Source of the DNA: Balanoglossus misakiensis
Taxonomy: Eukaryota > Animalia > Hemichordata
Assembly: GCA_040954595.2 (NCBI GenBank)
Contig: CM082579.2
Span: forward strand, 10,467,625 to 10,531,624
Direction of reading: 5' to 3'
Length of the DNA: 64,000 bases
The translations under genes and the position numbers were made by a program. The notes beneath the pieces were generated by a model. That model ran no database searches and had not been told where the DNA came from. It worked only from the letters and a program-made list of their open reading frames with translations. Of this stretch, positions 7,401-43,700 are shown in pieces; the stretch's first letter is position 1, and the number at the start of each line of letters is the position of its first letter.

Positions 7401-10400
7401 ATACATACATCCATGCATACACCAAATAGTGCAGGAGCTAAACCCCAAATTTGTGTATAATTGTGCACTTACAAGTTTCACGCTTTTAACCCAACGTGCA
7501 CTATTTCAAAGTATGAATGTCTGTTTCTGGCCACTAGAGGGCGCTGTCATTTTAGCTCCACATTGGAAAATGTCCCCCGTGGGGCAAAGCATGACTGTAC
7601 CAAGTTTCATGCTTTTGACCTGAAGTGCACGATTTTTTGGTTAACTGGTAACTGCCCCACTAAAATGTGACCTAAAAATGTTATTATTTGGTAGACCAAA
7701 GAAATCCTGTCTTATACATTGCCGATTTTGAGCAAACAAACTGAATACAATGAAATTGGCCTGATTCGTTATCTTCACTCTGTCTAGACAGACGCCAGAC
7801 ACAATAGTAATTTATTGTTTGTACATGTACAAAGTTTAGATCACCTTTATCTGCAGGTGGTATTTTCACAATGTGATAGGTGGTGTAGAGGCCATACTTC
7901 ACCGCAATGTTGTACACAGTGCCATCATTGTCTACATGTGGATGGGCTGATGCTCCGTGGACTGACACAACTGAAGAGTAATCCACCTGAAGATTGTGGG
8001 AAAAAAACAATTTGGAAAATAAAGACAAGTACTAATAAATGTTCCTACATATCAATTTTCATGCTTGTATCCCAATTTGATACATTTTGCAAAAATATCA
8101 CTCTAATCTGCCCCACTAGTATGATCGGCAAGAAATTGTTTAATATTTTGTTTTTGTTTTCCGGTGACAATGCAGAATGGAAATGCTGTGCTATACCTAT
8201 AAAGATTCACATAAAGTTATCACAATGGACTACCTTTTCTCCCATTGTTTCCAATGTCTTCGGATCGACTTTTCGAATATAATGGGTTTCTGATATTCCA
8301 CAGAAATCTTCTCCCATCTTCACGATGTTAACAGCTCCATTGTCAGTGACTTCTCCGATTTTGAAGTAAGAGAAAAACCTCTGGAAAATGTTCTTGCATG
8401 GGTCTGGATAGGCAAACGTCCCAAATGCAGAACGGACAACACGATTAGCACCTGTAGCTTCTTTGAAATCGTCACTTCTTAAAAATCTGCTTTGGTAAGT
8501 AACCACGCCCTTTTGGATATTGAACCGGTGGATGTTAGAAAGCCCATCGAAGAAATGGTTGTAGTTGTCTTGACCAACTTGATAGACACTTGGGCCATTC
8601 CTAAGTAAGCTTCCTGATATCCATGGTGGTATGGTTCCTTTTGAAGAAGAAAAAATATATATAAACCGTAATTAAAACGGCAAGCAGCGTTATAGCAAAG
8701 CAGGGCCCATGGTGATGTGCAAAGGTAAAATACACAGAAGAGACCTCTATCGACATAGACGAACGGTAATTAAAAACCAACAAGCAGGAGGTAGTGGTTT
8801 TGTGAATAGCATTACAACATATTGACGATCATTGTTGCAGAGCGGAACAACATAATGCACTGCAATCACGGGCATCCTGGGACAATTAGGCTAAAGCTGA
8901 TCGACTGTTTCGCGTCATACGAGCACTCACGCACATCACTCGTCGCTCATGTCCTACCGCCTGAGGCGCACTTTTCACTGGCGATGTGACGAGCCCAGTA
9001 AGCCAACTTTTGGACGAACATTATCAACTTTCGGACCGACATTTTAAACTCTATCGAGCCAACATTTCAACTTTTGAACATGAAAACAGTACTCTAACGG
9101 TCATAGTAATTTTTGCAGTCCGTTCCCATAGAAACAAAATTTTATGTACGTCACTATAGCAATTATATCCTAGGGGAGGGGAACTAGCTCGAGCTTGTTC
9201 ATAAGAATATATGCTGACACCGGCATGCGTGAATTCATCCAATGTTGCAAATAGGTGATGAGAGAGCTAGCTGAAATGTTGGCCCGGACTTGAAGCTCAA
9301 ATGCGAGTCTGAATGCGCTGGCCTCGATTATGCGCCGTGCATGTCACGGTGGCAACTTGGTCGCGTCTCGTCCCGGGTGACACGATGACCGTGACTATTT
9401 TCTTGTTAAATTAGGTGAATTCTGACATAATTTTGACCAGAACGGGCCCCCATATTCTTCCGTCGACCGTAATCTGTGACGTAGGGCTACGTAATGGAGA
9501 GTAACACCTGATTTGACAAGACGACCGTGGCTATATGTAAGTCATAAAATTGTATTCAGAAAAAGGAGAAGGACGGCGAAAGACGGTGAAGGACAGCATC
9601 ATATCCATGAAATATAGAAAACGACTCTCACTGATAAATCTACAAAATAAAGCCGGCTACACTGATCACTCCAGATGGTATACAAGGCAATAGACACCAA
9701 TAACACCACAAATTATTAAAACTTGTAAAGGGCATTACCATTTCCCGACAAAAATCAACCGAAGGACACCAAAATCGCCACAAAATCAACCGCGAAGGAC
9801 AATGAAGTCTCCACACAATCAACCTAAATCCAATTGAAGGACACCAATGAGAAAATTGCCCGTTTTATATGTTACCTGCATGGCCCTCGCCATCGGCATC
9901 TATTATATTTTAAGATATCTATATAATTTGTTTTGTTTTGTGGAAATTTGAGCAGAATTCAACATCAACTACATTCTAGTCGTTTTTATTCACAAGCGGA
10001 GAGCTAGTGTACATCAGGTAGAAAGAGGTCTTTTCGTTCTTCTGTTTTCCCCGTGATTAGCCTAATGTATACATTAATTCACCTATGCAAACTTAGTCTT
10101 CGTTACCATGGTCGCGATTTAGCCAGTCACATTGGTCATGCGAGAAAAAAAGAACAGCGTCGCCACGTGTTCTCAACAAGAATACTTTTAACTATTTATG
10201 TGTATGTGTAATTACGGGCGAGTGAATTCCGCTGCGAAACAAATGTCAACGAACTTTTCTGTAGCCTTCGCGATCGCATCGCGTAACAACGTCATGTAGT
10301 TGCGTAACAATATGTTGGTTGGCATGTACAGTTTGTCAGGTATGTGGTTCTACACGATCGCAGAAAGTCCTTGCGGCCAATGTCTTTTGTCCGATCCGTA

Positions 10401-13812: not shown

Positions 13813-14406
13813 GTCTTGTCATTTTTATTCATTCATATATTACTTAAATTATTTAAATTTATTATTCATACGCAAAAAATCATCGTAAGTCATTCACCAC
13901 CAGAATGTTGGTTTCATTCAAGGTTCGCTACACAACACCACATGGTGTTTCTCCTTTGCTTAACGGTTGAGGGCGCCTCAGTGACGAGTCTTGCAGCGAA
14001 CCGTTGGCTGTGAAAGTGTCTAAATGGATGAGATCGCCTTAAAAACTAAAACAATTCGATTATTATGATTAAAACTTGACTGTTTAAAAGGGTGGATGTG
14101 ATTTTTATGTGATATCAAGAATATACGGAATACTTGCATTAGGTCCCCAATGCGCAAAATAATGATATTTCACGATTCAAACATTGCAAAATATTTAACC
14201 CTCTTGATGTATGTAAAGAAAGCTAATTTGATGAGCGTGCCTGATAGCGTTTACAAGACACTCCGCCATGCGCACTAAACATTTTCGGAGTTTTCCAACA
14301 CTGTGAACTTTAGTTATCATCATATAACTCGACAAACACTAACAAGGACGAAAGACATGCGAAGAAAAAATAAAATCTGCAAGCAGCATTGAAGGGACCC
14401 AAGTAA

Positions 14407-15233
14407 GGGACCGTTCAGTTTTTACGGCCGGGGGGGGCGGCAAAATCCAGGGGGGGGGGGGTCACTTAAATTTTGAAGTCCAAAAGGGGGGGGGTCATCT
14501 GTTTTTTTTAAACGTTTGGGGGGGGGGTCACATACTTTTGCCACCGAACTTTTACTTTTGAGTCCACAAAAATTGCAGTTTCGCACCCTTTATTTTTCAA
14601 AATTTTCTCATGTGGGAGGGGGACACCCCCTCCCACACCCACCCCCTTCATTCTCCGCCACATTTTGTTTTTTGCTGGTTTGTCTAGTGTACCAGGCCGG
14701 GCAGACTTCTTGCCACCCCACCCAGATGCTTACTGTGAGTGGAGTGCCAAAATTAAATTTTTTCCGGCATAACATTGAGTTAATTTGCTTTTGAGTTCAT
14801 TAAAATGCAACTTTGAGCACCGTATTTTACAAAATTTTCTTATGTAGGAGGGGGACACCCCCTCCCAAGCCCACCCCCGCCACTTTTCTTCTTTTACCAA
14901 TTCTAGCAACTATTGTATTGACTTGTCATTTTATTTGGATCATACATTTCTTTATTGCAACGATATACTACATGTATTATAAACTTCAATTACTTTTAAG
15001 AAATTTATAATTGAGGTGTGAGGAGCCTCATTCCCTTTATTGGATACAGTGTACATAGGATCAGGACGGCGAATGTTTTCAGCGTGGGGGGGGGGTCATC
15101 ATATTTTTGGGGCTGTCAAAGGGGGGGTCATCATTTTTTGGTGCTGGGTGAAGGGGGGGTCGGCCTGATTTTGAAAACCGATGACACAAACTTGCCAGCC
15201 CCCCCCCCCCAGCCGTAAAAACTGAACGGTCCC
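14407..15233. mobile_element. PIF/Harbinger-type MITE, copy 2 (longer)
   Basis: Same TIR as 1024-1620, TAA target duplication on both sides, inverted relative to copy 1. Confidence 0.85.
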
Positions 15234-15289
15234 TAAATAGAGATAATCATGACAAATCCATTGCATCAAATGTCAATGCTGTAACTGCT

Positions 15290-17873: not shown

Positions 17874-20800
17874 TTATTCTTTTTCAAAAATTCCATGCAG
17901 TCCATATGTAATATGGACTGGAACTTCAGCTCTGGCTATTTCTGTGAAAGACTCTGCATCCAGGATCAGTAGGAATGATGGATTGTTTTCTCCAACTGTC
18001 ATCACTGATGACAACACTATACCTGAAAGAAATCAAATACCATAATATTTATAGTCAATCACACTGTAGCTTCAACAGTATATTTAGGATTCAGTTGGCC
18101 CAGTTGCAGGCACTAGAGTTGTGTACATTGTGGGACTGAAAGTGTATGGTTGGGTGGTAGTATATATTTCCAATAGTAGGGTAGGTCAAATTACCGAACC
18201 ACACAATATTTTTGCATTGGCCTTATCTGAATGCTTTAAAATGATAAATATCTCAAATTGCAGTAATTTTTTCCAAGGTGACAAAATACACATCATGATC
18301 ATAAAGATTACCATCACATGATTAACAATAATTATCATGTAAATTGTCATATTATTAAATTACCACTACTTATGTGGGGAAAAAACACAGAAAGTACCTT
18401 CATCTTCTTTAGTGGCACCTGGTTTGGGCACAAAGACAGGTTCTGAAGGAAAGGCATCATTTCCGGCACTCCATTCTTTGTAGGATTTCTCCAAAACATC
18501 CCACTTCATCAACTAGAATATATAATGCAAACGATACATTGAATTACACAGGAAAATGCATTTGACTAAACGATTTAGTCTTATATTTATCACCCACTAT
18601 TGACATTGCTGAGAAATTTACACATTACCACATCACGTTCCTCCATCTGGTCCAGGAGCCCTCAGTAGACCGTAGCATAAAACACAAAATAAACCCAGAC
18701 CGAATAAGCTGCCCAATGAAGAAGACCCATTTACAGTAATAACATCAATGAAAAATAGCATCAAGGACACTGTGGTCCCATTTAGGGATTACACAAAAAA
18801 GTATACACTGGAGTACATATACAGACAGAGAGAGAGAGAGAGAGATCAATAGGCAAACATCACTGATCTGACTGACCCATAAGCTGCCAATGACATGTGT
18901 ACTGTACAAACACCAAATAGAACAGCTGGTTTAACAGTTAGCGAGTTATGTAAACATGTGCTTATACATACTTTTGCAAATACTCCACCCATACTGTATG
19001 CATATCTGTATTCTTTGCCATTCATGGAGTAGTTGATTCTTGGCAGTTCAACACCTGCAAATGAACATACTCGTTTAGTTTCAAGTTCAAGGGAACAAAG
19101 TCCAATTAAAGCTGCAAGCAGCATTGGCGGGACCCCAAGCGGACCTCACCAAATGCCAAGTAGGTGTGAACATTGGTTTAGGATCCCTGTAAGTTCATCA
19201 AATACTCGTCCATGTCCAAGAAAAATCAGAATTCCAGCCCTCAGGATGGAACATATTTGAATATACACATATACTTACTCTCATCATCACCAACATCAAT
19301 GATCTTTTCGTAAGTGCAGTGGATAGAGCCATCATCCAATTTCATTGCGGTAGCCGTGCTTTTCTCCAACGTCACTAAATTTTCACCAACAGGAGCTGTC
19401 TGCAACAGTTTCAAATTAAGAAAATTACATGTCAAGATTGATAAATCACCTCATACTGACCACAACCTGAACAACAATGGGCAGTCACCTTGGTGACATG
19501 CCTATGCACGGACCACTATTTGTTATATACACAAATGGCAAATACATATAATGTATAGTAGTGCAGATTAGAGTGATTGTTCGGCCAAATGTTTCAAATT
19601 GTGATACAAGCATGAAAATTGGTGCATAGGTATATAAAAGGCCACTTTTTAAAGAAAATAACACACATACAAATGATTTGTCATCCTACCTACCTCTTCA
19701 ATGTTCAATGGCAGGACAAAACGCCAAGGATGAACCAAGGATAAATCCCCTCCAGACTGCAGATCATCCATGTACAGACGTTTCAGTACATGCACGTCGG
19801 AGTAACCACACAGATCGACAACGAGATGACCATCCTTCTCGTAGGCATTCACATGGTGAAACGTGAAGAAGGAATCTGCAATAAATCTCGTCTCCAAAGC
19901 TTGTCCGGTCTCACGATTAATAACTCGGAACCGGTTTGGCCATTCTGGGTAGAACTCAAACGTATCCACGAAAGACCAACTGAGTAGATTAGATGCAAGA
20001 AGTTTCCAGACGTTGATGATGACCGGTTGTTCGACGAAGATGATGTACTTTTCACTCATGCCGAAACTGTGGAAGTACGACGGGTGCCCACCATGCGAAG
20101 GGACAGAGCAGATAATGGACGCTTTCTGATATGGATCCTCAACACCTGAACCATTAGTTTGAAAGAGTTAATTATATGTCATTTATGCTGACCAGCTGTA
20201 ACTGTGAGTTCATCTTAAGAAACCAACCAATCAGTAGCAACCTCTCAAGACAGTTACATGCGATGCTGTATTACAATGGCCTTGGTTTTCAAGTAATCTT
20301 TTCATTATTTCATATTGTAGAAAAGGATGCTGTCTTGCTTATCAACAATCACAAATGATATAATTTTACAGATTTGGAGAACTAATATCCAATCTCAACA
20401 GGATGGTTTGATCACACCCCTTGTGATCACATTATCCTACACCAGTATTAGCTGTATTAGAGAGCTATATTCATAGACTACATGTTGCATCAACAGTGAA
20501 GTACATGTACCTTTATCGGGTGGTGGAATTTTAATGATGTTGTAACTGCTATATTTTCCATATTTGATACCCATGTTATAGACAGTGCCATCAGGATCTG
20601 TGTGACAGTGAGCTGATGCACCATTGACGGCCAAAACTTTGCTGATATCGATCTAGAAAGAAGCATAGGGAGAGAAGTTATATACCAGTTGTATGTCACT
20701 TTCAAAGACATACATGTACACATGTAGTATATGTACCCCTTTGCCAGAATTTCTGTTCGAACCAGTGTTCTGTTGGTGTTAGTGTTTCCATGAAAATGTA

Positions 20801-22195
20801 TGGTATGATTAGCCTCAAATTAGCAGTTTTGTATACAAAAAGAATAGTGGCTAGACACATGTATGACAGACATGTTCCAAAATTAGTTGAAATCACATCA
20901 GAATAATACTGTAAAACGGGTTATTTTCGTGACAGGAAATTTTCGCAATATTAAAAGAGGCAACTGTTACGCGAGGATTTATTTTCACGTTCTCGTATTT
21001 CATTGCATCTTTATCTCCGAAAAACATTTACGCAACTTTTTATTTTCACGTTTTGTTGGCTCTCGCGTATTTCGCGAAAATTTATTGCTCGCGAAAATAA
21101 CCTGTTTTACAGTATACATGTACACCCGTATGGGATTTACTTACTTTGTCGCCAAGAGCGTCTAATGTTTTCGGATCAATCTTTCGAATATATGGCGTCT
21201 CCGTCATGGCATAGAAATCTTCCCCAATCTTAACCAAAGCAACACTGTCATTATCCGTCATTGGTCTAGACTTGAAGTGTGAAAATAATCGATGGAAGAT
21301 ACTCTTGCACGGGTCTGGGTAGGCATATGTACCAAAACTTGTCATCGCTATTCGATTGGCTCCAATCGCTTCCTTGTAGTCATCGCTCCGGAGAAATTTG
21401 TTCTGGTACGTGACCTTCCCATTGCTGATGTTAAACCTATGCAGCAATGCAAGTCCATCGAAATAATGCTTGTACTGCTGCTCCCCAACTTTATACAGTC
21501 CTTGGCCATTTCTTAAAAGATTTCCAGTCAACCATTCGGGAATTGTCCCTGGAATTAAAGAGGAATATGCTAGAATGTGATCAATAACTTTCTGATATAT
21601 AAACATATACATTTATTCAAAAAATAGCGTCAAGGACACGGTGGTCCGATTTAGGGATTACACAGAAAAAGTCTTCACCGGAGTAATTATACAAACAGAC
21701 AGACACAGAGAGATAGAGATCAACAGGCAAACACTGACTGACCCATAAGCAGCCAATGACATGTGTACTAGTACACCAAATAGAACAGCTGGTCTCTTTA
21801 AAGGGACAAAAGTCTCTCTCTCGCTGCCCTTGTTCCATTAATTATGTTTATTACGTATGACACAGTTTATATTATTCTACATGTGGATATATAGTGAATC
21901 AACGTTCAGCCACACACAACTTCCATCACGGCGTTACACAGGAACACACAGACCTGTACGTAGAGGTATACCCTCAACATGTAGCAGCACCCGCTACAAT
22001 CATTGCAGCTAGACTAGCTCAGCTGCGTGCAGGTCTGTACGCAGAGCTACATACAGACCTACCTTTGACTTTGGTTTCCATCGGTTCAGCATGATCCTCT
22101 TCAACTGGTAGGGATAAGAAGAATTTAGAAACTTGCTTGTTGAATTTCACATCTCCCTTTTCCGGCTGTTTGTCTGCTACTTCAAATGTCGCCAT
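17874..22195 (-). CDS. Carotenoid cleavage oxygenase (BCO1/BCO2/RPE65 family), paralog B, 8 exons, about 532 aa
   Basis: Exons (minus): 22063-22195, 21145-21548, 20511-20652, 19694-20145, 19279-19399, 18972-19054, 18398-18512, 17874-18022. Same intron positions as paralog A (exons 2-4 are 404/142/452 nt in both). Motifs [65 protein letters not shown]. Confidence 0.94.
18765..18930. repeat. Dispersed repeat of about 170 bp, present in introns 6 and 1 of oxygenase B (second copy about 21625-21793)
   Basis: tcaaggacac.gtggtcc.atttagggattacaca ... gactgacccataagc.gccaatgacatgtgtact ... caccaaatagaacagctggt in both places, same orientation. Confidence 0.75.
20907..21114. mobile_element. TA-flanked MITE (tactgtaaaac TIR); related copies at about 26600-26806 and 43954-44164
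   Basis: tactgtaaaac ... gttttacagta termini and a shared internal tctcgcgtatttcgcgaaaatttattgctc motif. Confidence 0.7.
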
Positions 22196-27200: not shown

Positions 27201-30200
27201 TTTGTTCTTTTATATCTTTCATAAATTAAAGTCTGTTGCTGAAGCCAGTGCCACGCTGCGCTACACTGAATTTGGACAGAGCTCGGTAATTGTTCTTTTC
27301 ATTGTCAAATTTTATTCCAGTTTTTGCATCCGCTCGAGCCTCATCATCACATCATTTTGCTTTCAAACGATACGCTTATGTCGATGTCTTTGCTACAGTG
27401 TCGGATGACGGACTCTTTTCAAACTATGGAAACAGCCACAGTTAAAATTGCTACCCCATCATCTCATGTCAATTTAATAGCAGTTTATCGACCCCCTCCG
27501 AGTAAATCGAATGGACCTACTATGAACAGTTTCATCAACGATTTCACTAACCGCTTGACTTGCCATCTTGTGCATGGAGTGTTCACCGCTGGTTATAGTT
27601 AGAGATTTTCACATACCTGTCGATGATCCTAGCTGCTGCCTGAATGCCATTAGATGTCATTTTCTGACATTTTAGACACCTTTTCTATGAATCAACTTGT
27701 TACTGGTCCTACTCATCGGTCTGGTCATAGTATTGATCATGTCATCACACGCAGTACGGATAATGTCATCTCTGATGACCAAGTAGAGCAAATCTACTCT
27801 ATTTCCGACCATTACCCACTGTTTTTCTCGATGAATACTGCTGTCACTCGCTTGACAACTTTTCGACGTATTAACACCAGAAGTTTGAAATCTTTCTCTG
27901 CTGAAATCTTTCATCTGCCTTTTCCCAATGCAATCAGATGGTTGAAACCGTCGACATAACAGCCAAGCTGAGTCTAATTAACGCCATCATTCGTGATAAT
28001 TTGACCATCATGTCCCTCAGCGAACACGAGTTGTCCCAAATCGCCAAACTGTATCTCAGTCAGTTCGAAAATCTTGGTGACATTTGTTCATAATATAATT
28101 TATGGGTCTGTGTGTTTACACATGCATCACGTTGCTATGCATTAAGAACCTATTTGGAAAACGCTGTAAAGTGTCTGTACACATTAGTGAGAAAAAAAGT
28201 ACCCAGGCTGTTTAAGGGGAAACAAAGCGTTCGCATTAAACACGAATGTTTACTTGACTGAACCTTTACGGTCTTTAAAAGTTGTTTATTTTTAACATAT
28301 GACTGTAAAGTAACAAGGGAGCTCCCTCTCGCCCGCAATCCACCTTCATTCTCTTCGATTGAATGATACACGACCGTGTCAGGCAATCGAATAGTCCGGG
28401 TGTCAACAAGGATAGGGTCAGCAAAATTCATTGTATACAGCAAATAAACTATTTTGTGATGATGAACACACTCCAATGTTCCATATTACCAAACTGTTAT
28501 TAGTCCCGACCCGCTGGTATAGTGCATGGTTTATCTGGGTGTCATACCACCAAAGAGGCCATGTGGTCTAGAAGAGTATTTAGTTTACTTTCTTGACAAG
28601 CCACATCTGCTGAAACTGGCACCGAGAATGATGCATTTCACAATGAGCGGTGTCAACATCGACGCTCGAACTGTGAATATCGGGCAATGACTAGCAGGGA
28701 GATAAAAAAGAGGCGCGGGTCAGCCAGAAAGACTTACAACAGTGATCGAGGGAATTGACATTTGTCTCGAGTAAATTCCATCACATTTCTGAACGTTTAT
28801 TTGACCGAATTAGGGTTCCCGCATACATCTGCGTCGGTTACCGATTTGGCCGACTCAGAAATCGCCCACGGGAACTTTGATAAACGATTAGCACTCAGAA
28901 TTATCGATGGCCCAAATATCCTCAAATCACCCAAAATATTTACTGTAATTTTGTAACTCCCGGTTGTTGGTTTTATGTAGGGAGGTATCATGTTACAGAT
29001 TCTGTTACTTGCCGTTTACATTGTCTAGACCTAGCCTTGCTGTAGAAAGTTCACTGTCAGCCCTATCATCATAAACATACGGGAACGGACACTTGTCAGT
29101 AATTATAGATAAAACGTACAAAGGTGAATCCAACCATCCACAATTAAAAGAAACGACGTTCAACTTTGACGATCGCATCCTTAACAGATACAACTTACAA
29201 ATTCACATGTTGGATATTCTTCTGCTGTGTTTTGTTTGCTTTGTAGATTTACAATGAAGAGCTTGCCCGACGAATACAGAATGTCACGACGGCAGAAGAT
29301 TTCCTTCGAGTGTTTTATCCAGATAGGAACCCGCGCGACGTGTGGCAAGAGTTAGTGCTGAACAGTACATTAGATAAAAATAAAAGACTGAGACGGGGGC
29401 GAGGATCTATCCTGAACGGTAAATGCCCAAAAAATATTAAGATAGGGATACACTGACTATGTAGGTTAGCGCTATCATTAACCATAATCTGCCAATGAGA
29501 GAAGAGAATTTGACATTTACCTTCACATGTCCTAATACATTCAAATATCCAAATGGTTCTACATTTCAAGGTCGCTGTCAAATACCGTACCGCAGGCTTC
29601 TTCGACTTCAGCAACTATAAAAAATCATAAGCTGCATATACCGGTAGTTACAGTCTCTTTTGCCTATATCAACCGTTTATCTTTACATTAATATTCTCGT
29701 CTTAATTTCTATTTCTGTTTCTGTTGCAACCTTGACCCTGTATACCGTTCCTTATACCTCCTCTCTGCCCCCCTTCCCCTCGCCGCTATCATTCCTCCCT
29801 CTGCCCCCCCCCTCCCCCGTCTCTTTCATTACTACATGTATTAACAGCGTGGGAGATGATTACGACTGAAACAGAGGAAGCGACTTGTCAGCCGCGAGAC
29901 ACAATCGTAGACGTCTATGAAGAGTTCGGCATTCCCAGGGGTTTTTCCAATAATTATATATTTCCCGAATGTGTTCTTGTCAAGAGGTGTAAACGCAATG
30001 GCTGCTGTGGAATCACAGAAGAGTGTATGGCAGAACCAGATGGAAAGAAAAATATTCAAATGATGGTAAGAGGATTATCCAATTGAAACTTCTCGCACTC
30101 AGATCAATGCCGACCACGCACTGCAGACGGTAGACTCTCTCACAGCCCACGGTTCGCTACAAGGCTCTTCACTGATGCGCCCTCAACTGTTTATCAAAGG

Positions 30201-31802
30201 AGTAGCCCCATATGGTGTTGTGTAGCGAACCTTAGGGCCCCTCTCGCCGGGCACACATGCAATCAGTCCACAAGCCTGCATGGACGACGACAGGGCCTGT
30301 GAGAGAGTTTATGCAGACGGTTGCGGAGATATATACGTTTATATTTCCAATATATATTATAAACTACTTTTCCAATTTGCCTCAGAGATAACGGTAATGG
30401 GCAGTGTAATGTGTGTGTTTACACAGAGACGTACTGTTGGACCGATGTTTACTTTATCAACTTAATCCGAGGATGGGGTACACAGATTAAGTAATTAGCA
30501 GGTGCTTAGCGGGAAATTCGATAGTTTGTATTCTGGATTAACAACTGATCAGCTGATAGGACAGGACGTGGGGGTAAACACACACAAAAATTGTAGATTG
30601 AATCATACTGTCTATGATCGATACAACACGGCAAAGCTAACATTGCAAAATAGCCAGTGTCTAATCGTACATTACCAGTTTACCAGAGATTGGTGAACTT
30701 TTTAACTTAACCTGAAGCGATTAGAGATCGGTGACTGGGAACAGTCACGTCACTGAGAGGGTTGCGCGTTCTCACACTGCGATCGCGCCTATAACTCATG
30801 TGACTGTGCAGGTGGCTGGTAAATAATAACAGGCTACTTACTTATTCTCACTGGTTACTGAACTCTTCCTTTCAACCTCTCTTAACGTTTTGCTCCCTCA
30901 CAAAAACAGCCGTCTACCTTGAAATTTGCCGCCAAATTCCGAGCTTTACTGCACAACTCATCTACTGTTACTTGTACTATGCCAGGATTCGCGGCAAGCT
31001 GATAAAAAGAACGACTGCATTCAGTATTGGCCAACTAAAATGTTATTTTGTATGTGTATGTGAAATGGCTGGAGAACGTTTGAAAACGCAGCAGTCCATG
31101 ACGATATGTTGCCTTTGTTTTACAAATCGGAGGAAACCTTTTCTTTCTCTTTGGCGGATTTTCATATCAAATAACTCAAAATAATCTGCTTGGAAACTTA
31201 AAGTATTATTTGTTGTTTATTTCCAGTTCATAACACCGGAACCTGAACTCAGGAGAGTTTCATCAGACACAAACTGCTCTTGTCAACCGAAGACAGAAGC
31301 GTGTCGTGAACCCAAAGTGCCGTGCCACGCGGGTAAAGTTTGGAATCCTGCAACATGTAGCTGCCAGTGCAAACGATGTCCCTCTCCGTTTCGACTGGAC
31401 GAGAAGAAGTGCGACTGCACTTGTCTCATGTCCGACAGGCGCTGCTTAGGCGCAAGAAAGGGCAAGAAACGATTGAGAGACGACGAATGCAGGTAATAAT
31501 CGCCCTCAATAGACGTAATTGAGTAATCTTTTGTTTATGTAACTTTGTGTTCACTGAAAGAATGCACCCCCCCCCCCCCCGAATCTGTTTAATGGTGTGT
31601 AGTACTGGCACTTATGAAGCATTTATATACTGCACCAAATTTGATTAGACTTTCATGCATATTACAGATAGCCACCTGGCAAAAAAAAAGAATAACAGGA
31701 CTTCATATTTTCATTATTAACAGGTGTGTCAAAGAGGAGAATTGTGGGATTCCCGACTGTAAAAGTGGCGATTTTAGTGTGAGCATGTGTCGTTGCATTT
31801 GA
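24232..31802 (+). CDS. PDGF/VEGF family growth factor (VEGF-C/D-like architecture), 5 exons, about 286 aa
   Basis: Exons 24232-24357 (hydrophobic YYIVAALMLWWISS signal-like segment), 29247-29418 (propeptide ending in basic KRLRRGR), 29848-30065 (CQPRDTIVDV...FPECVLVKRCKRNGCC...EC), 31227-31492 (CSC plus CXCXC repeats WNPATCSCQC and LDEKKCDCTC), 31724-31802. All GT-AG, frame open. Exon 1 is the least certain. Confidence 0.88.
27390..28060 (+). mobile_element. Degenerate LINE (CR1/L2-like) AP-endonuclease fragment in VEGF intron 1
   Basis: Broken frames encode VYRPPPSK, QLVTGPTHRSGHSIDHVITR and SDHYPLFF, typical APE motifs. Confidence 0.8.
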
Positions 31803-32575: not shown

Positions 32576-32960
32576 TGTTGGATAATAAAATTGATTCCAT
32601 TACCTTGTTGGCATTGTAAATAATATGAGAAGAAAAACATAATTAATATGGCACAACGAAAATGCTGGATTACAGTTGGGGTTCAATGTCATTACTATAA
32701 GTAGATCACCAAGTGTGCTGATGACTATGGTCACTGGTTCTAACATAACACATATACAAGACAGACAAGAAATGGTTGTTTGTCTAACAGAGTGTATTTA
32801 CTTGGTATTGTCTTAGCACTTATTTCATTTCAATGTCTGCTCAACAATTTTGTTTACAGTTTCACATTTGTAGAAATATATTAAATAAAATATTTATTTA
32901 TTACATTATTTAAATTTTCTCAGAGTGTTGAAATACATACACCTTAGCCATAAATACTAT

Positions 32961-33590
32961 GAGGTTATTACGAAAATACCACAAAGTATGCACGAGGACA
33001 TTAGCGCTGAGTATCGCCCGTCGCGTAGCGGAGGGCGATGCGCTGCGCTAATGTCCGAGTGCATACTTTGCGGTATTTTCGTAATAACCTTATTATTATA
33101 CATCTTACATCTCCGTTAGTTCTTGTGTTGCATGTTACTTGGCTTTCAAAACGCCCAAAATGCCGATACAATCGATCGAAAACCGCTCAGTTGACTCAGT
33201 GAGCAGCCATCTTTCTTTTTTGTTTACGTGTGCGCACGTGCGTTGGAATGCGGGCGCCTTGAAACCGTCCGAACAGCGCATACCTGTACACGGTGAGTTT
33301 GGGGCGCCTTGAAACTAAGGCTTATTTAAAGGTATACGGTCACCTATACAAATTTAGCCACAGTTACCATGGTAAATCGAGATCTAACCAATCACAGATT
33401 TTCAGTGGGTGGCACACGCGAAAATAAAGCGTTCTTTAGAACACTCAAATACGCCATTTCAACTATATATGGCGATATGTAAATTGGAGGTGACCGTATA
33501 CCTTTAACGCGCGTTCCGTACGTACCGTTCCGTACGGCTTTTTATTGCACGCCAAAATCTATTGTTCTCGGCACTAGATGTATAATAATT
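32961..33590. mobile_element. Non-autonomous element with a hairpin of about 130 bp at one end (Crypton-like), containing a nested TTAA MITE
   Basis: aggttattacgaaaatacc.caaagtatgcac ... gtgcatactttg.ggtattttcgtaataacct palindrome at 32962-33090; terminal agatgtataataa complements internal ttattatacatct. The insertion is absent from the paralogous sequence at 40219-40403. Confidence 0.6.
33330..33503. mobile_element. Kolobok-like TTAA MITE (related sequence at about 2363-2500)
   Basis: TTAA|aggtatacggtcacct ... aggtgaccgtatacct|TTAA. Confidence 0.8.
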
Positions 33591-34752
33591 TTTTTTATCA
33601 AAGTATATATACTTGGAATTTACCCGACAATAAGTCAATCAGAGACTTTGTTTTCCTATGATTGGACAAAGGATATACATATGTGTAATTAAGGATGGGT
33701 AAGAAATTAGCCCTGCCTTCACTATAACCTTGCACCATTGTTCAGTTTATATGTGAGTGACTTCAAGGGGACGCTCATCTGGAAATTTGAATGCCAATGA
33801 TATAATATTTTAAGCCTAATCACTCCGCTCAAGAATATTGCCTATTGTTAAGGATTGGGAAGCTCGCATTGTTGAAGGCATATCCTGAGTGAAGTGCAGG
33901 CCAACAAACCAACGGAAAAAAGGGGGGGGGGGCGGGTGGGCGGGCGGGTGGGGAAATTGCCCCTTACAACTAGTGCCTATCCGTCCAACATTCCCTTTGG
34001 CCCCATTTCTTACCCCCTATCCTTTGTTATATTCCTTGTAGCTTCTGCCCTTCCCTGTGCGAGGAAATGACACAGAGTCTTCTGCCCTGTTCTTCTTTTA
34101 TACCTTTGTCATTCTTATGAATATTAATGAGATAACACCTGGCGGAATATTATCGCTACGTGATTAGGTTTTGAATAATATAATATTTAAAGCCTAATCA
34201 CTCCGCTCAAGAATATTGCCTATTGTTAAGGATTGGGAAGCTCGCATTGTTTCCGGCTATCCCCACCTCAGTGAAGGTCCTACCAGGTATCATAATTTCC
34301 CACACTCACACCTCTCATCTCCCAATCCTAACATACATTCCCCCTTTCCTAAATATCCCCAAACCTCAATGACCTGGTCCCTGTCTAGGGGCGCCCTCTA
34401 TGTCCCCCAGGAATATTGTTCTCTTACGCCAACTCCAATTCCCATGCTGGGATGTTCAACTGGAAAGAAACGATTCACACTATGATACCTCAAAAAATAA
34501 AGCATTTATGACCGTTTTGACTTCTTTTTTTTTTAAGAGGGCACCCCCAGACAGGAACCTGCGAATGGCAGGGAGCCGAAAAGGCAAGGGCTTAAAGAGT
34601 CGCCCCCCTGTCTGAGGATCCGGGAATGTCAACAAAATACCACATTATTCAAAGAATAACACATCAAGTGACTGGAATAACCGTAATGCGATTTACTCTT
34701 TATTGCTTTTAAGACACATGCTTACATCGAGTGACGTTTGAGTTACAACAAT

Positions 34753-37300
34753 TTATTTCTTTTGCTTACAATCTCTAGCAAAATGGCCTTCGGCACCACA
34801 GACGAAACACTTGGAATTTTTGGGCTTCGGTGACCTAGATTAACTATATCTACCATAAGGGGAATACTGACGATCAGGCTCCTTTGTATTACGAGTAAAT
34901 TTTTCAACTTTAGCTGCAATTTCCTCCTCCTCCTTATTGCCCAAAAGTAACAAAATTAATTGGCCAGCATCCTGACCAAACTCATTAGTTTCAAACTGGG
35001 CTAGCACGGCCCTATATCTAGTAAGCTTAGGATGAGCGGTTTTCGTGGCACGGTCAACAAGAACACGAAGAGCATTCAGCAGCTGTGGTCGTATGTTCCA
35101 CTCTCCCGACGTGGCAATCTCCATAACCTTTCGATGCGCGTCTGCTACAGAGTTGTTGTCTGCCATTTGCTGCAACTCATCCAATTTTTTCTGCATCACC
35201 TGCAGTTGTTGCTTCACCTGCAACAGAAAACACATTCTTACCAATTTGCATGGTACTTATTGTTTCCCCCACATTATGTAACACGACCCACTTCGGGCTC
35301 TGTCATTTGTGAAGCAAGTCTAAACCTCCAAGGCGTAGAACTAAGTACACCTATATTTTCCATACCTTTACGCCTTGACTCGCGTAAGGTGTAATTCTCA
35401 CATACTTTAACGCCTTGACTCGCGTAAAGTTTTTTATGAATACCATTACGCCTTGACGCGCGTAAGGTGTAATTCTCACATACTTTAACGCCTTGACGCG
35501 CGTAAAGTTTTTTATGAATACCATTACGCCTTGACGCGCGTAAGGTGTAATTCTCAAATACTTTAACGCCTTGACTCGCGTAAAGTTTTTTTTTTATGAA
35601 TACCATTACGCCTTGACTCGCGTAAGGTGTAATTCTCACATACTTTAACGCCTTGACTCGCGTAAAGTTTTTTTTTTTTTTTATGAATACCATTACGCCT
35701 TGACTCGCGTAAGGTGTAATTCTCACATACTTTAACGCCTTGACTCGTGTAAAGTTTTTTTATGAATACCATTACGCCTTGACTCACATAAGGTGTAATT
35801 CTCACATACTTTAACGCCTTGACTCGCGTAAAGTTTTTTATGAATACCATTACGCCTTGACTCGCGTAAGGTGTAATTCTCACATACTTTAACGCCTTGA
35901 CTCGCGTAAAGTTTTTTTATGAATACCATTACGCCTTGACTCACATAAGGTGTAATTCTCACATACTTTAACGCCTTGACTCGCGTAAAGTTTTTTTATG
36001 AATACCATTACGCCTTGACTCACATAAGGTGTAATTCTCACATACTTTAACGCCTTGACTCGCTTAAAGTTTTTTTATGAATACCATTACGCCTTGACTC
36101 ACATAAGGTGTAATTCTCACATTCTTTAACGCCTTGACTCGCGTAAAGTTTTTTATGAATACCATTACGCCTTGACTCGCGTAAGGTGTAATTCTCACAT
36201 ACTTTAACGCCTTGACTCGCGTAAAGTTTTTTTATGAATACCATTACGCCTTGACTCACATAAGGTGTAATTCTCACATACTTTAACGCCTTGACTCGCG
36301 TAAAGTTTTTTTATGAATACCATTACGCCTTGACTCACATAAGGTGTAATTCTCACATACTTTAACGCCTTGACTCGCGTAAAGTTTTTTTATGAATACC
36401 ATTACGCCTTGACTCGCGTAAGGTGTAATTCTCACATACTTTAACGCCTTGACTCGCGTAAAGTTTTTTTATGAATACCATTACGCCTTGACTCGCGTAA
36501 GGTGTAATTCTCACATACTTTAACGCCTTGACTCGCGTAAAGTTTTTTTATGAATACCATTACGCCTTGACTCGCGTAAGGTGTAATTCTCACATACTTT
36601 AACGCCTTGACGCGCGTAAAGTTTTTTATGAATACCATTACGCCTTGACTCGCGTAAGGTGTAATTCTCACATACTTTAACGCCTTGACGCGCGTAAAGT
36701 TTTTTTTATGAATACCTTTACGCCTTGACGCGCGTAAGGTGTAATTCTCAAATACTTTAACGCCTTGACTCGCGTAAAGTTTCGTATACAAGCCTTAACT
36801 CCATTTACCTTGTCTCCCACACCTGGTCGCCCACAAAGACAAATAAAACGATTAGCATACTAAGTAGGTCTTCAAAGTAAAAGGACTTGTAGGTGGCAAC
36901 CACCAATATCATCTACACGAGACTATGAAGTTTCCAAGCTCATAGAAATGCCACGACGAAGACAACAAGGAATAAAACCGACCTGCACCAAAAGTAACTC
37001 TGGGCTGCAAACAGAACGCACCTGTATGTCATGATGTTGACTATCTTGAGCCTCCGAAGGGGCTTCCAAAGGCTGAATAGCTTGTTCACCACTTGTACTT
37101 GCAGTAGTTGACCCCGTCGAAAGACTGGTAGGTAGGTGACGTTCTGGTCTGGCTGGTCTATCAGGACGATGGGCGTCCACAAAAGCTTGTGCGATATCAG
37201 AATCAGTGGCCGCTCCCCGAGTTGGCTCACGAAGTTCGGCAGCGTCTACAGCTACGTTGGAAGTGGTTTTCTGAGCAGCTACGTCTTGTCTCGAAGCCAT
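34753..37300 (-). pseudogene. Gag-like protein with CCHC zinc knuckle; two exons, one in-frame stop
   Basis: Exon 37022-37300 (MASRQD...HDIQ, donor CAG|GTGCGT) joins in phase 0 to exon 34753-35217 (acceptor tgtgttttctgttgcag|; VKQQLQVMQKKLDELQQ coiled-coil-like). After TAA at 34840-34842 the frame continues SRSPKPKNSKCFVCGAEGHFARDCKQKK* (CX2CX4HX4C). AATAAA on minus at about 34699-34704. Confidence 0.75.
35358..36783. repeat. Minisatellite of about 79 bp, 18 units, two hairpin cores per unit
   Basis: Unit atgaataccattacgccttgactcgcgtaaggtgtaattctcacatactttaacgccttgactcgcgtaaagt(n); 18 copies of ggtgtaattctca counted. Confidence 0.97.
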
Positions 37301-37336
37301 GTTCTATACCGGTGGAGACTGCCCTGACTGTGCGAG

Positions 37337-37375
37337 GAAATGACACAGAGTCTTCTGCCCTGTTCTTCTTTTATA
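37337..37375 (-). promoter_or_regulatory. TATA box and Inr-like motif inside the 5' repeat of the retroelement
   Basis: Minus strand TATAAAAG (37375-37368), TCATTTC about 30 nt downstream, then aacATGG at 37300. Confidence 0.55.
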
Positions 37376-37573
37376 CCTTTGTCATTCTTATGAATATTAA
37401 TGAGATAACACCTGGCGGAATATTATCGCTACGTGATTAGGTTTTGAATATGAATGCCAATGTAAGTGCCGCCTGAGCGCGTCTGACCATGGTCTGACCT
37501 TCTCTTTGTCTGTGGCTAGCTACATCACAACTCCCAGCAAGGGGTATCAGGTTTTCTTGGGCCTCTACTGTCT

Positions 37574-40106
37574 ATGGTGGAAGCAAAGCGGGCAAAATAC
37601 GGCTGGATACTAGACTCAATAATGACCCGGATTCTAGGCATCGACTTCGCCCCGTTGGTGGTGCCTTGGCACCGGCGGCTGGAGACGCTGGCGGCCGCCC
37701 ACTATGTCTTCAGCCGCGTCGTCCTGTGCACGCTCCCCAGTGTGCTGGTGCTGTACCTCCTGTTCGCCACCTCCTACTACTGGCTGGCCCTTCTCTACCT
37801 CACCTGGCTGGCCGTGGACTGGCGCACACCCAGACGGGGAGGCCGGCGGGCCTCCTGGTTCCGCCACTGGTGGTTGTGGAGGTACCTCGCCAGATATTTC
37901 CCGGTGAAGCTGGTCAAGACGTGTGAGCTGGACGCCAAGAACAACTACATATTCGGGTACCACCCGCACGGGATCCTGGCCGTAGGCGGATTCACCCATT
38001 TTGGGACAGAAGCCACGGATTTTAGTCAACTGTTCCCAGGAATCAAGCCCTACCTCTTGGTTTTGAAGATCATGTTAGCTTTACCATTTGCTCACGATTA
38101 TTACATGCTAGCGGGTAAGTAAGCACGTATGTTATCAGTAAACGAAATATTACAGAGGCCAGGTTTACAATCAGAGTAATCCATGTTCAACCACCAGTCA
38201 CATTTTACAGTGTTTACCAAAAATTACATTTTATTTTTCTGAAATTGGCATCGTAGGGTGCTGCGATGTGAGCAAAGACAGTATTCGCCACATCCTTGAA
38301 GAGGAAGGCACGGGCAATGCAGCCATCATTTTGGTCGGTGGTGCCAAAGAATCGCTGGAGTCGACACCCGGCCAATGCAAAGTGCTTCTGAAGAACAGGA
38401 AAGGTTTTTGCAAGATGGCACTCAAGCATGGGTAAGGTTTGTTTTTCAGTTTGTGTAGTTTTCTGTACAGGCACTGAATGACAGTTCACGCATTGTACGT
38501 AATCACATTATAAGAATTGCATTTTGGGTAAAAGGTCGACACCTCTCTGTAGTAGGACCTTGAAGAAATGATATGTTAACTATATTTCAACACTTTCTTT
38601 GATCAAACATTTCTGTCTTTGTAGTTATATTAAAATCACTCTACTTTTTTTTCACATTTTGTTATTTTTTCAAAGTTTCAGAATGACCCATTGTCACTTT
38701 AGCGGCTTATGAAATTCCATTTCTTAAACATGGCAAAATTCGGCCATCTTGAAATTGTGTCGACCACATGAGATTTTCATCACTCACCTATAAGGTAGCA
38801 AAAACCTATTTGAGGTAGCTCGAGAGTTACATATTATCGTAAAATGTATAGCCGCCAGTTTAGTCCTAAAATTTTAGCTCTCGTAGTAACATACGTGAAC
38901 AACCGTTGTGCCGTTTCTGTCTGTTTGTCCGTCCCACTTCCAGCCTGTCTGTCAGTTGACATGATACGATCATTCAGAAATTATCATTTTCTGTCAATAA
39001 TCGAAGTCATGACCCAAAAATTAACAACAATCTGACAAAAGCTGTCGACCATTTACATGTATGTAAATTTACCAGACTCACAGCCCTTTGTACTGAGGAC
39101 CCTATGTTTTCTAATTACCGGTTCTCTTCACCAACACAACGTTATCAACTCACTGTCTGGACGTACAACATATGTATACCCATTTCTCTGCAGTGCCCAT
39201 CTGGTGCCCGTGTACTCCTTTGGCGAGGAGGAACTCTACACAAAAGTGGACAATCCCACGGTCAGGAAAATACAGAACACGCTTAAGAGCTTGGTGGGCT
39301 TGACCATTCCTGTCTTCCACGGGCGTGGATTTTTCAACTACAATTTCGGACTTCTGCCTTACAGGCGAGCCATCAACACTTTTGGTAAGTTTCCAGTAGA
39401 CTGCGCCTATCTGCTTCAGGACGAGACATTTAAGAGTGAAGACTGTGAAGTCCAGAAAAGTGAAGCAGAAACGGTTGTCTGCTATAATTGTTAGATGACC
39501 TGAATGAATTCTGGCTACCATACATTGTACTAGGTTTTTACTTCGCGCTGAATTGAACTCTATAGGTAAAGGGTCGACAACTCACTGTAGTATAAAGAGA
39601 GAGAATAAGTGATGTGTTGATTGTATTTCATGACTGCCTTTTTAGTTACATTCAACTTTTTTTTCAAATTTTTATTATTTTTTCTGTTTCAAAGTATCAG
39701 TTTAGCTTATGACCTTCCATTTCTTAAACATGGCAACAATCGGCCATCTTGAAATTGTGTCGACCATATGAGATTTTCATCACTCACCTATAGGTAGCAA
39801 AACCCTATTTAAGTTATGGAAAATTATATTGCCCCCTTTTATTGCCCGTATCACTTCAGATAAGTGAGTGTTTCGATGGACCGTACTTTCCTTTTATTGT
39901 GTTCAGTAAGATGGAAGTGTATATCACTCTTGTTTGATCTTTGCTTTGCAGTGGGTTCTCCGATTCCAGTAGAGAAGGTACCGGAACCGACCAACGAAGA
40001 GTTGGACTCGCTGCATCGCCTTTACATTGAGAGACTCAAGGCTCTCTTCGACGAGCACAAAGTCAAGTTCCCAGAATATGCTAGCAAAGAGATCATCTTC
40101 ATATAA
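37574..40106 (+). CDS. DGAT2/MOGAT family acyltransferase (2-acylglycerol O-acyltransferase-like), 4 exons, about 353 aa
   Basis: Exons 37574-38114, 38257-38431, 39194-39384, 39952-40106, all GT-AG. Motifs FAPL...RRLET, TPRRGGR, YFPVKL, NYIFGYHPHG, VGGAKESL, RKGFCKMALKHGAHLVPVYSFGE, GLLPYRR, VGSPI, LFDEHK. The start could instead be the ATG at 37622. Confidence 0.93.
38520..38830. repeat. Dispersed repeat family (also about 39560-39815 and 52640-52925)
   Basis: Shared gtcgaca..c.ctgtagta ... ccatttcttaaacatggcaa..atcggccatcttgaaattgtgt ... gagattttcatcactcac. Confidence 0.8.
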
Positions 40107-40717
40107 ATTACGAAGCGCATCATATCGCGATGATCACTCGCGATAACAGGCCATTCAAAAGTCTCTTCTTCATTCCACGAGACCTCGTTTCCTCTCTGCC
40201 GGGACTGCTTCAACTTCAATTTCATTTCAATGTCTGCTCAACAATTTTGTTTACAGTGTCACATTTGTAGAAATATATTAAATAAAATATTTATTTATTA
40301 CATTATTTAAATTTTCTCAGAGTGTTGAAATACATACACCTTAGCCACCAATACTATTTGATCAAAGTACATATACTAGTACATGGAATTTACGCGACAA
40401 TAATAGTAACACAAATTAATATGTATAAAAGAGAGTTTTCCTACATGTAGCTTGCTTGAAACATGTACAATGATCACAATGAAAGGATAAAAGGATAACA
40501 AAATAACAAAAATATAGAACGAAAAGGTTAAAAACAAACAGATCATTAAAAAAATCTAATCAATACAGTAAGCCAACTTAAAAAGGTATGTCTTAAGCAT
40601 TGTTACAAGAACAAATATTCACTGGAAGCTGGTTCCATAAAAATGGGGCTGCAGAACAGAAAGCCCTATCACCATGATACTTGTTTGTATCGGTAATGAA
40701 ATGTATGATTAAATTTA

Positions 40718-43700
40718 TTACTTATCAAAACTCTGTGTCGCCAGATATTCCACACCAACCTTAGAATTCCATGTTTTTGAATTTTCAAATCCATTCTTTC
40801 CTTGTGAGTAATCCTGCCAGGCCTGCTTTGCTTCTTCTTCTGTAGTCATAACAAACGAACCTATTAAACAATTAACATAACTTTATTGATCAAATTATCC
40901 TTGTCGGTCGACTGACTTTGCTCTCTCCCTCTCACTCACTCACACACACACACACACCGTGACCAATATTTGCTTGAAATACTGTGTGAACACAACTCCC
41001 AGTGGTGTGTGTGTGGGCCTGTATTTATCTGTGTCTGTCTGTCTGCCTATCTATCTTAATATTGGGTTTTGTTTTTCCCTTGTTTATTCTTCGATATTAA
41101 ATGACGTCAGACGCGCTCTGGCGGCAGTTACGTAGGCATTCAAATTTCCAGATGACGGGCAACTTCAACAACGTGGTCCAGACGAAGACTGTGCAGACGA
41201 AATGCCATGAGGCTGATGAGGCACCATACCTGATACATGTTACGTGTTTGGTGGTTCTAAAGTAAAAACATACTCGGAAAAACTTTTACTGGATGTCGAA
41301 ATATTGCTTGCCCGTCATCTGGAATTGACTACATTGTGGGTCACATGGCCAGATCACATGATTGATAGTAAAGAATATGAATAAGTTCTCCAAAATCCTT
41401 CATTCATTGAATGTCAACTGATATCAGTGCCAAGATCTTTACCTTCCCACACAACTGGTTCTTTCAGAGGTTCACCAGCAATCAGGACAAAGTGGCACAT
41501 TTTGGAATCCTGAAACAGAATTTACACAGTATAGTTTAATCCTTTCACCCCAGCAAAATCTATCACCTTTAATGTTGCTGTGTACTGTTGTCTGCCAGCT
41601 GTTTTTAAGTGTCCACTGCACACGACCGGCAATGCCTGGCCACAAGCTTATACCATGGACGTCCATGCTTATACTAACACCGATTCGACACTTGTCAGTT
41701 TTTTATCATTCTTTTGTCAGTATTTTACAAAATATATGTGTGAAATCACTGAATGAAAGCCTCGAGTCGACACTTAGTCGTCAGTTTTTTATCACCTTTT
41801 TAATTTGCCAGTATTTCCACAGTCCCCAAAAGAAACAAAACACGCGTGTCTTTGTTGGTGGACAAGTACATGTACAAGGTTGACTGCCATGACAGGAACT
41901 TGTTCTGAGGTCAGAATCGAAACAAGAAAACCGTATATGACTCTAATAATAGCTAGACACAAAAATCTTGCTATAAAATGCACAGGAAACCATTCCCCCC
42001 CCCCCCCCCCCAGCAAAAACAACGACATGTCAACAAGTTGTAAGGAGTAGAAGAAGAAGAAGATTCAAATACTTGCTTTGTTTTCTGCCTCAATAAAGGT
42101 GCCATTGCTGAGAACCAGTGTACAATGCGTTTCCCCCAACACCATCTTTGATGCCGGACCTATGCAATAAATCATGTCAAATACAATTACGTTACATACT
42201 CTGTCCTTTTTGTATCAAACTTGATCTCCATGAAGTCAGCGGATGACGTGTTTTACGACGAAACCTGTCTAAACTGAAAACAAAAGGGACAGCAGAAATT
42301 GTTCGGTTTGCAGAGGTGTCTGGTTTATAGAGGTTCTTTTAACACGAGGTTCTATGTGAAAGGGACTGAAAAATGTCTTTGGTATAGACAGGTTCCAGAT
42401 TAGACAGGGTTTGGTGTACTAGATTTGAGAGAAACCAGTTCAGTTATGGCACATCATGGCAGTTTACTAGCACATGTACAAATTCTATTGCCATGGTTGG
42501 CATCAATCAAGGCAATTATAAAGATCGTGTCAAATAAAAGCTTGGCATGATGCTTTTCTAGATGCAAACTTAAAATCTCTTTCTGAAGACAGAATGTTGT
42601 ATATCGGAAATGAAAACTATTACCAAAATGACACTTTCCAGAGAGCACATAAACAAATGCTGTCCAGTCTTGAGGAATGGCTTGTTTCAGTTTAGCACCC
42701 TGTTTTAGTTTGAAGTCCAGATACATTGTTGGTGTCCGGGTCCTCACTTAAGACTTTGAATAGGGGAATATGAAAAAAATATACGAACAAATATAAAATA
42801 TTCTCTCCCTATGATACAATGACAAAAACAGTGCATACTTAGGACAAGCATCTGTGCATAATCATGCTCTCAGAAAAGTTTTGACCAAAAAATACTACAC
42901 ATACTGTCATTTTACCAGATTAAATCTGATAGTCACTTGTTAAGCCTCATGAGCTGCAACTCGATAATTTTTGAAGCTTTAAATAATCTCTGATTTATAA
43001 ATTGGTAGTCAGACAGACAGACCAGAGACGAATGGATGAAAATGTTTTAATTTGGATTTACTAAAATCAAAAATGGTCCCAAAAACAGAAATAAATTCCA
43101 AAATTGAATACCTTAACTCCCATGGACTCTCCGGCGATAATTTTAACCGTGATCCCATTCTTGTTGACTTTCGGTATGTCTTTATCTGCCAATTCTTGAT
43201 ACTGAGGATCTATCATCTTATGTTCTTTGCCAAGGTTAACCCAGAGCTGTAGACCATGAGCCTCACTTTGGCCAGCTGGCATTTCTGAATGAACAATACC
43301 TTTACCTGCTGTCATCCACTGAGTCACCAACCACCCAACAACCAAACAACAAACATAAAACATGGGTTATATATATTTCAAAATTTTTCATGTTGACTGA
43401 GGAATCTGCAATGTTCTCCACTAGGGCAGTGCATATGTACGTGGAATAGAAGTTTAAAATTAATTCAAATAAAACACTAGCATCATTTGAAAAAAGGCAG
43501 TACACTTTTTCGCACTTTCATTTCCTTTCACTAAAACATTTGATGAAACATACGAAATCAAAACATCCCCCCCCCCCCCCCCCGCCCCTGTGGTCTTCAT
43601 TCTGTGCTCTCTTTGGTTTATTATTGTTAAGAAAATACTCCAGTATGATGCAATTTGTGCTGCTGTCTTCCAATGTGTTAATTGTGAGTGAGAAACACAG

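Follow-up and report, generated by a model that had tools for sequence, protein, structure and literature searches.

Retrotransposons that encode a tyrosine recombinase (YR) are described as making no target-site duplication (TSD) in the accessible text of three sources (PMC4157794, PMC3266345, PMC13465315), and in a curated Ectocarpus library 14 of 15 Ngaro and PAT rows give the TSD as 0, with the remaining row blank (PMC12477816 supplement 1). In the available part of PMC7192593, integration of DIRS-order complementary DNA (cDNA) by the recombinase is still largely a model, and that model, as excerpted there and in PMC3266345, expects direct target homology at the junction; Cryptons, according to the available part of a preprint, integrate through short homology (bioRxiv 2022.05.23.493040). 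We analyzed a 64,000-nucleotide stretch of the Balanoglossus misakiensis genome (GCA_040954595.2, contig CM082579.2, positions 10,467,625 to 10,531,624; hereafter the window) and found that a 3,651-bp element with DIRS-order structure (33800-37450) is flanked by a perfect 12-bp duplication, so that this copy departs from the TSD-free insertion described for the DIRS order. The original prediction had set the duplication against this same rule, which agrees with PMC4157794 and PMC3266345, as far as their accessible text goes, and with the Ectocarpus rows. No DIRS-order element with a long TSD came up in a non-exhaustive literature survey that left aside Repbase and Dfam notes and subscription papers, and the available portions of PMC9210276, PMC6681497 and PMC5890265 hold nothing bearing on the matter.

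The 12-mer TGAATGCCAATG occurs exactly twice on both strands of the window, at 33788-33799 and 37451-37462, and the two identical copies adjoin the element directly, as the original prediction had it. The limits of the element are set independently by its internal repeat copies: its left end is the start of repeat B (34178) and its right end is the end of repeat A (34177). The internal A|B junction does not contain the 12-mer and contigs of other copies leave the junction into other sequence; therefore the 12-mer is not element sequence, we rejected the idea that it belongs to the termini, and the claim that it is target DNA present twice was borne out. Neither end of the element shows trimming, filler DNA, poly(A) or truncation. 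For a fixed pair of positions, the analytical chance of a 12-mer identity is 9.5e-8; in the real window, about 1.99 million random position pairs gave 50 with a suffix/prefix identity of at least 12, and most of these 50 are probably due to the window's repeats. When we scanned 59,737 positions outside masked arrays and the element, none centered a perfect non-simple tandem duplication of at least 10 bp, and nine positions had one of 8 bp.

To model the empty site, we removed the element and one 12-mer; the product agrees with 41155-41106 in 46 of 50 positions (E 9e-16). This paralog lies inside the last pirin intron, with Pirin/Pirin_C exons on both sides, and it has the motif in a single copy in which 2 of the 12 bases are changed. 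The homology spans only about 50 bp, and together with the two differences this indicates that the paralog is a short dispersed repeat and not an orthologous empty allele. Thus, the match, the single motif and the intronic position claimed for an empty-site paralog all stood, but its standing as a true empty site did not, and judged from the alignment the paralog is good but indirect evidence for one ancestral copy of the 12-mer. The edge of the paralog (41143-41163) recurs inverted at 41311-41327, about 150 bp away in the same intron, which suggests a small inverted-repeat element as the source of the target motif.

The element lies on the minus strand in the order A1, gag-like gene, B1, A2, spacer, B2, a layout of split direct repeats in which the A copies are identical (123/123) and the B copies differ at one base (73/74). 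Exon 2 of the predicted gag-like gene encodes a protein part that shares 53-66% identity with six Ptychodera flava proteins, five of which have a CCHC knuckle (PF00098), and exon 1 has an FVxAH motif in common with Ptychodera homologues (a weak profile match over 11 columns). No Pfam family matched the Gag exons, the Atlas leads for Gag fell below the Atlas thresholds, and no fusion of this Gag into a longer protein was found, which is weak evidence. With 124 reverse transcriptase (RT) and YR queries, we found no credible match inside the element. Because it has no RT/ribonuclease H (RH) or tyrosine recombinase of its own, the element can be classed as a non-autonomous derivative only; judged by its structure, the 3.65-kb copy is a new non-autonomous member of the DIRS-order split-repeat retrotransposons.

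At the B1|A2 junction (34160-34201), we found that 18-bp inverted arms (16/18 paired) flank a 6-bp spacer (34178-34183), and the crossover (34177|34178) falls on the spacer's left edge on the plus strand. The junction DNA is predicted to form a stronger hairpin on the plus strand, which is the first-cDNA strand (z -5.66), than on the minus strand (z -3.68). The target itself is written in a 6-bp phase (GAAATT TGAATG CCAATG). Among 32 target offsets, the donor AAT at positions -4 to -2 is matched by a run of at least 3 bases only at offsets 0, 6 and 12, and offset 6 is the best mimic of the crossover, with 7 matching bases; the background frequency of AAT is 2.8% at a given position and 0.086% at two positions 12 apart. 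The joins used at this locus are offset 0 for the A end and offset 12 for the B start. Because the ends were joined at 0 and 12 and not at one offset, the duplication consists of 6 + 6 bp around the best mimic. The likeness between the element end (TTTGAATA) and the target (TTTGAATG) that had been pointed out earlier is correct.

To see how other copies end, we compared contigs from three sequencing runs of one sample (X1, X2 and X3) with the window over 33500-35340 and with the junction. Contigs over the element body have depths of 226-341 in X1, as compared to 24-26 for the lowest among the matches listed, and across about 1 kb the high-depth contigs show 3 substitutions and two indels relative to the window. 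The high depth and the few differences indicate that the family is young and multicopy, although depth does not measure copy number. Where contigs of other copies depart from the junction, they do so behind 34177 (at least 3 in X1 and at least 3 in X2) or behind 34178 (at least 4 in X2); these contigs, at least 10 in all, are three merged rows from two runs. Both ends of the element are thus base-exact at the crossover used by the family, which supports insertion by a recombinase. Two left-junction contigs from other or related copies continue into the A end, one for 3 bases and one for 7, with mismatches inside these runs not displayed; the runs represent target homology right at the junction, as an ordinary recombinase crossover would give. 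Near the junction (34120-34243) contig depth exceeds that over the element body several-fold, and related subfamilies diverge behind 34210-34226; from this we infer that the termini are shared with further families or with solo junctions.

The same contigs bear on the gag gene. An in-frame stop at 34840-34842 precedes the CCHC knuckle (about 34768-34809) and is common to the high-depth family contigs, which show 0 differences there, and one contig (depth 135) lacks 34698-34843, the knuckle-coding part. Based on the shared stop and this deletion, the non-autonomous family seems to have shed its CCHC knuckle twice. The X3 contigs inside the element cover gag exon 2 only.

To identify the enzyme of a possible partner, we turned to relatives of the Gag, whose family reaches Branchiostoma and Acropora proteins in a profile search (probability 99.1), and examined six metagenome loci with a coral-type Gag. 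One of them, L002, has the order gag, RVT_1 (2.3e-7), ALOG (2.7e-26) and Phage_integrase (8.4e-5), and related proteins have a ZnR-ALOG-YR arrangement with the catalytic motifs R, HxxR, HxGW and Y; the ALOG-tyrosine recombinase fusion is present in relatives only and not in this copy. A Ptychodera protein, P0020, begins with the N-terminal part of this Gag subfamily and continues into a pol start that is 43% identical over 54 amino acids to the RT open reading frame (ORF) of L002. Domain scans of the relatives detected no nuclease family other than the recombinase, endonucleases included. In a second locus, L005, the segment after RH gives an Atlas lead (0.92) to a cluster named Dam-domain protein, and Pfam and PHROGs show no methylase match there. 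The flanks of L002 share no match of 7 bases or longer; since the 3' end of L002 is undefined, we did not count this as a TSD test. Scans of viral contigs and prokaryote genomes found no relative, and matches to the 18-bp arm in 2 viral contigs extend over those 18 bases only and were set aside as chance. In all five of the six relatives whose sequence reaches upstream of gag exon 2, a tandem minisatellite lies in a predicted gag intron, as it does in the window; its place is conserved from corals to this host, whereas its unit (79 bp in the window) is not.

Set beside described systems, these relatives, which in marine invertebrates have Gag/Zn-knuckle, RT/RH, a methyltransferase (MT)-like segment and ZnR-ALOG-YR in this order, resemble the ALOG DIRS1-type retroposons (Iyer and Aravind 2012, PMC3537659, in its available part); in contrast, the present copy has Gag only. 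The accessible text of that paper gives terminal direct repeats for Ectocarpus and nothing on split repeats or target duplications. The A1-ORFs-B1A2-B2 layout is known for Ngaro and PAT elements (excerpts of PMC8547959 and PMC4157794). Like PAT-like elements, as excerpted in PMC4157794 and PMC3266345, the element has split direct repeats and a zinc-finger Gag, and its relatives an MT-like domain that is a lead only; it differs in its 12-bp flanking duplication and in being non-autonomous. Ngaro elements share the repeat layout, and Ectocarpus has non-autonomous families with variable internal tandem repeats (available parts of PMC8547959 and PMC9210276), such repeats being mentioned in three of the Ngaro/PAT rows (PMC12477816 supplement 1); however, Ngaro elements are without MT, which the relatives here appear to have, and their curated TSD is 0. 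The split repeats and the candidate MT-like segment point to a probable PAT-like rather than a Ngaro affiliation. The integron attC x attI reaction (PMC8946536, in part) likewise has a strand-biased hairpin at the site and ends at one strand's cut, but makes no 12-bp duplication on insertion, and the likeness is an analogy only. The LTR (long terminal repeat) class was rejected on structure, including the Troyka LTR retrotransposon with its CG..CG termini and 3-bp TSD (available text of PMC12440569), as compared to the split repeats, AT-rich termini and 12-bp duplication found here.

We tentatively favor the reading that the duplication is a sporadic off-register second join of a tyrosine-recombinase insertion in this copy; it may well be right, although we would not call it probable. 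It builds on what was observed directly, namely the layout, the exact ends, the duplication, the junction anatomy, the target periodicity and the recombinase in relatives. Under this reading, an autonomous ALOG-type partner, probably PAT-like, would have mobilized the element in trans with its tyrosine recombinase. Reverse transcription in trans would rebuild both ends out of the internal B1|A2 junction, and the recombinase would act on the plus strand at GAATA^ATATAA. Of the two ends, one would then have gone to target offset 12 and one to offset 0, and neither to offset 6. Either the recombinase would have made the second join, or this join would stem from the repair of a one-strand exchange; the 12 bases lying between the two joins would be copied by the host, through fill-in or replication. 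A one-off event, which had been named as a possible outcome, is plausible. Several points weigh against this reading. Since a conservative recombinase exchange leaves the target unduplicated, the reading needs a further step that was not observed, and the AAT phase was spotted post hoc. The reading rests on one copy with both flanks (n = 1), no contig among the matches listed confirms a junction of this locus on either side, and the single ancestral 12-mer was judged from a paralog and not from an orthologous empty allele. The recombinase evidence comes from coral-type loci and not from a direct partner in the host genome; their Gags are only about 26-30% identical to the window Gag, and their terminal repeats are not resolved (for L002, an inverted-repeat score of 48 against a shuffled maximum of 54).

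Other explanations account for the same 12 bases. It is unlikely, though worth serious attention, that host repair captured a complete linear cDNA at a staggered break, or at nicks 12 bp apart, without the recombinase. The geometry matches a classical TSD, the accessible text of PMC7192593 describes most DIRS-1 cDNA as linear and single-stranded, and pairing of the 18-bp arms could bring the two cDNA ends together; however, both ends are untrimmed and without filler, both target joins fall at AATN^ sites that resemble the donor crossover, and the poly(A) and 5' truncation of target priming driven by a long interspersed element (LINE) are absent. We consider it improbable that the ALOG-recombinase of the family routinely duplicates its target, by about twice the 6-bp spacer, through one-strand exchange followed by offset processing of the second strand. 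The curated Ectocarpus TSD values of 0 (14 of 15 rows, PMC12477816) speak against this, as do the two other left junctions where the mimic lies directly at the junction; in addition, two left flanks pair with none of three right-flank consensus rows, which is uninformative if copies are many. What speaks for such a mechanism is the 6 + 6 bp around the best mimic beside a donor spacer that is also 6 bp, and the observation that every A end among the matches listed breaks at the plus-strand cut, on the strand that folds better; integron integrases, in the available part of PMC8946536, do exchange one strand on folded DNA. The corresponding generalization, that ALOG-type elements insert a folded single-stranded cDNA through the exchange of one strand and routinely leave duplications in multiples of the 6-bp spacer, strikes us as equally doubtful.

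Recombination within the element body between two homologues, one carrying an ordinary insertion at offset 0 and the other at offset 12, would also leave this structure, and both joins are plausible target sites of a young, multicopy family; but two insertions at most 12 bp apart are required, signs of a hot spot are absent, the paralogous target (41106-41155) is empty, and we hold this to be very improbable. The chance that a 12-mer tandem already existed at the locus, with the element inserted between its copies without a TSD, is slight: the 6-bp quasi-period favors slippage, the tandem's center would be an AATN^ site and the paralog is not a true empty allele, but the paralog holds one copy and the scan of 59,737 positions centered no perfect non-simple tandem of at least 10 bp. 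Just as slight is the chance of an assembly or haplotype-merging artifact of a heterozygous insertion. The left junction is spanned by no contig among the matches listed, yet the ends are exact and the repeats near-identical, and, should the assembly come from accurate long reads, such artifacts are in general uncommon there. Hardly credible, finally, is integration of the family by another nuclease or by target priming, for which a 12-bp duplication would in general be typical. The relatives encode RT/RH and an ALOG-recombinase, with no other nuclease family detected and with P0020 linking them to this Gag; the junction is of the recombinase type; LTR or Troyka termini are absent; and the ends show no poly(A), truncation or filler. 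Because of the recombinase in relatives and the recombinase-like junction site, the different integration chemistry that the original prediction proposed for the family is not supported. We also rejected an insert mobilized by target priming from a LINE or a Penelope-like element (PLE): both ends are complete and tail-less, and the relatives have no endonuclease family.

As a single case, the duplication is a curiosity; the non-autonomous element that it flanks is otherwise ordinary. Mis-resolved insertions are nevertheless footprints of the DIRS-order recombinase reaction, and should a few percent of copies show duplications or matching deletions in steps of 6 bp, the exchanged strand and the route of the second join could be read from them. 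If a 12-bp duplication were family-wide, it would be notable, and the classification rule that tyrosine recombinase elements make no TSD would need an exception.

Table. Coordinates of the element, its flanking duplication and the target paralog in the window, and of the minisatellites in related loci
Feature	Position	Strand	Basis or remark
Left copy of the 12-bp target duplication	33788..33799	.	sequence comparison
B2 terminal repeat, element 3' end, 74 bp, 73/74 against B1	33800..33873	-	
Spacer separating A2 from B2	33874..34054	-	
A2 internal repeat, 123 bp, identical to A1	34055..34177	-	
B1|A2 junction with inverted arms	34160..34201	.	
B1 internal repeat, 74 bp	34178..34251	-	
Gag-like exon 2 (predicted)	34753..35217	-	
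Gag intron (predicted), phase-0, GT-AG	35218..37021	-	splicing inferred from sequence
Minisatellite, 79-bp units, within predicted gag intron	35362..36782	.	
Gag-like exon 1 (predicted), 93 codons, low complexity	37022..37300	-	
A1 terminal repeat, element 5' end, 123 bp	37328..37450	-	
Right copy of the 12-bp target duplication	37451..37462	.	sequence comparison
50-bp target paralog, motif once, last pirin intron	41106..41155	-	sequence comparison
Gag-intron minisatellites of relatives	L001:387-1296, L002:842-1128, L003:2797-3212, L005:378-712, L006:2323-2840		base units 27-45 bp

The insertion lies upstream of a DGAT2/MOGAT-like gene (DAGAT 7.4e-41), about 160 bp from its likely start codon at 37622 (interval 37451-37622), and the element's 5' repeat points away from this gene; an effect of the insertion on its expression is possible. 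A direct repeat of about 185 bp (32822-32960 plus 33593-33633 against 40219-40403; 98% and 81%) brackets the element together with the MOGAT-like gene, and its upstream copy is interrupted by about 630 bp that contain a 135-bp palindromic insert (32959-33093) and another repeat. A PDGF/VEGF gene lies at about 29736-31800, and at 6440-8671 and 19649-21612 on the minus strand are what we take, from the look of their ORFs, to be two tandem carotenoid-oxygenase-like genes. Long inverted repeats at 1011-1633 and 14406-15239, about 13 kb apart, may either mark the ends of a large DNA transposon or belong to a single family of miniature inverted-repeat transposable elements.

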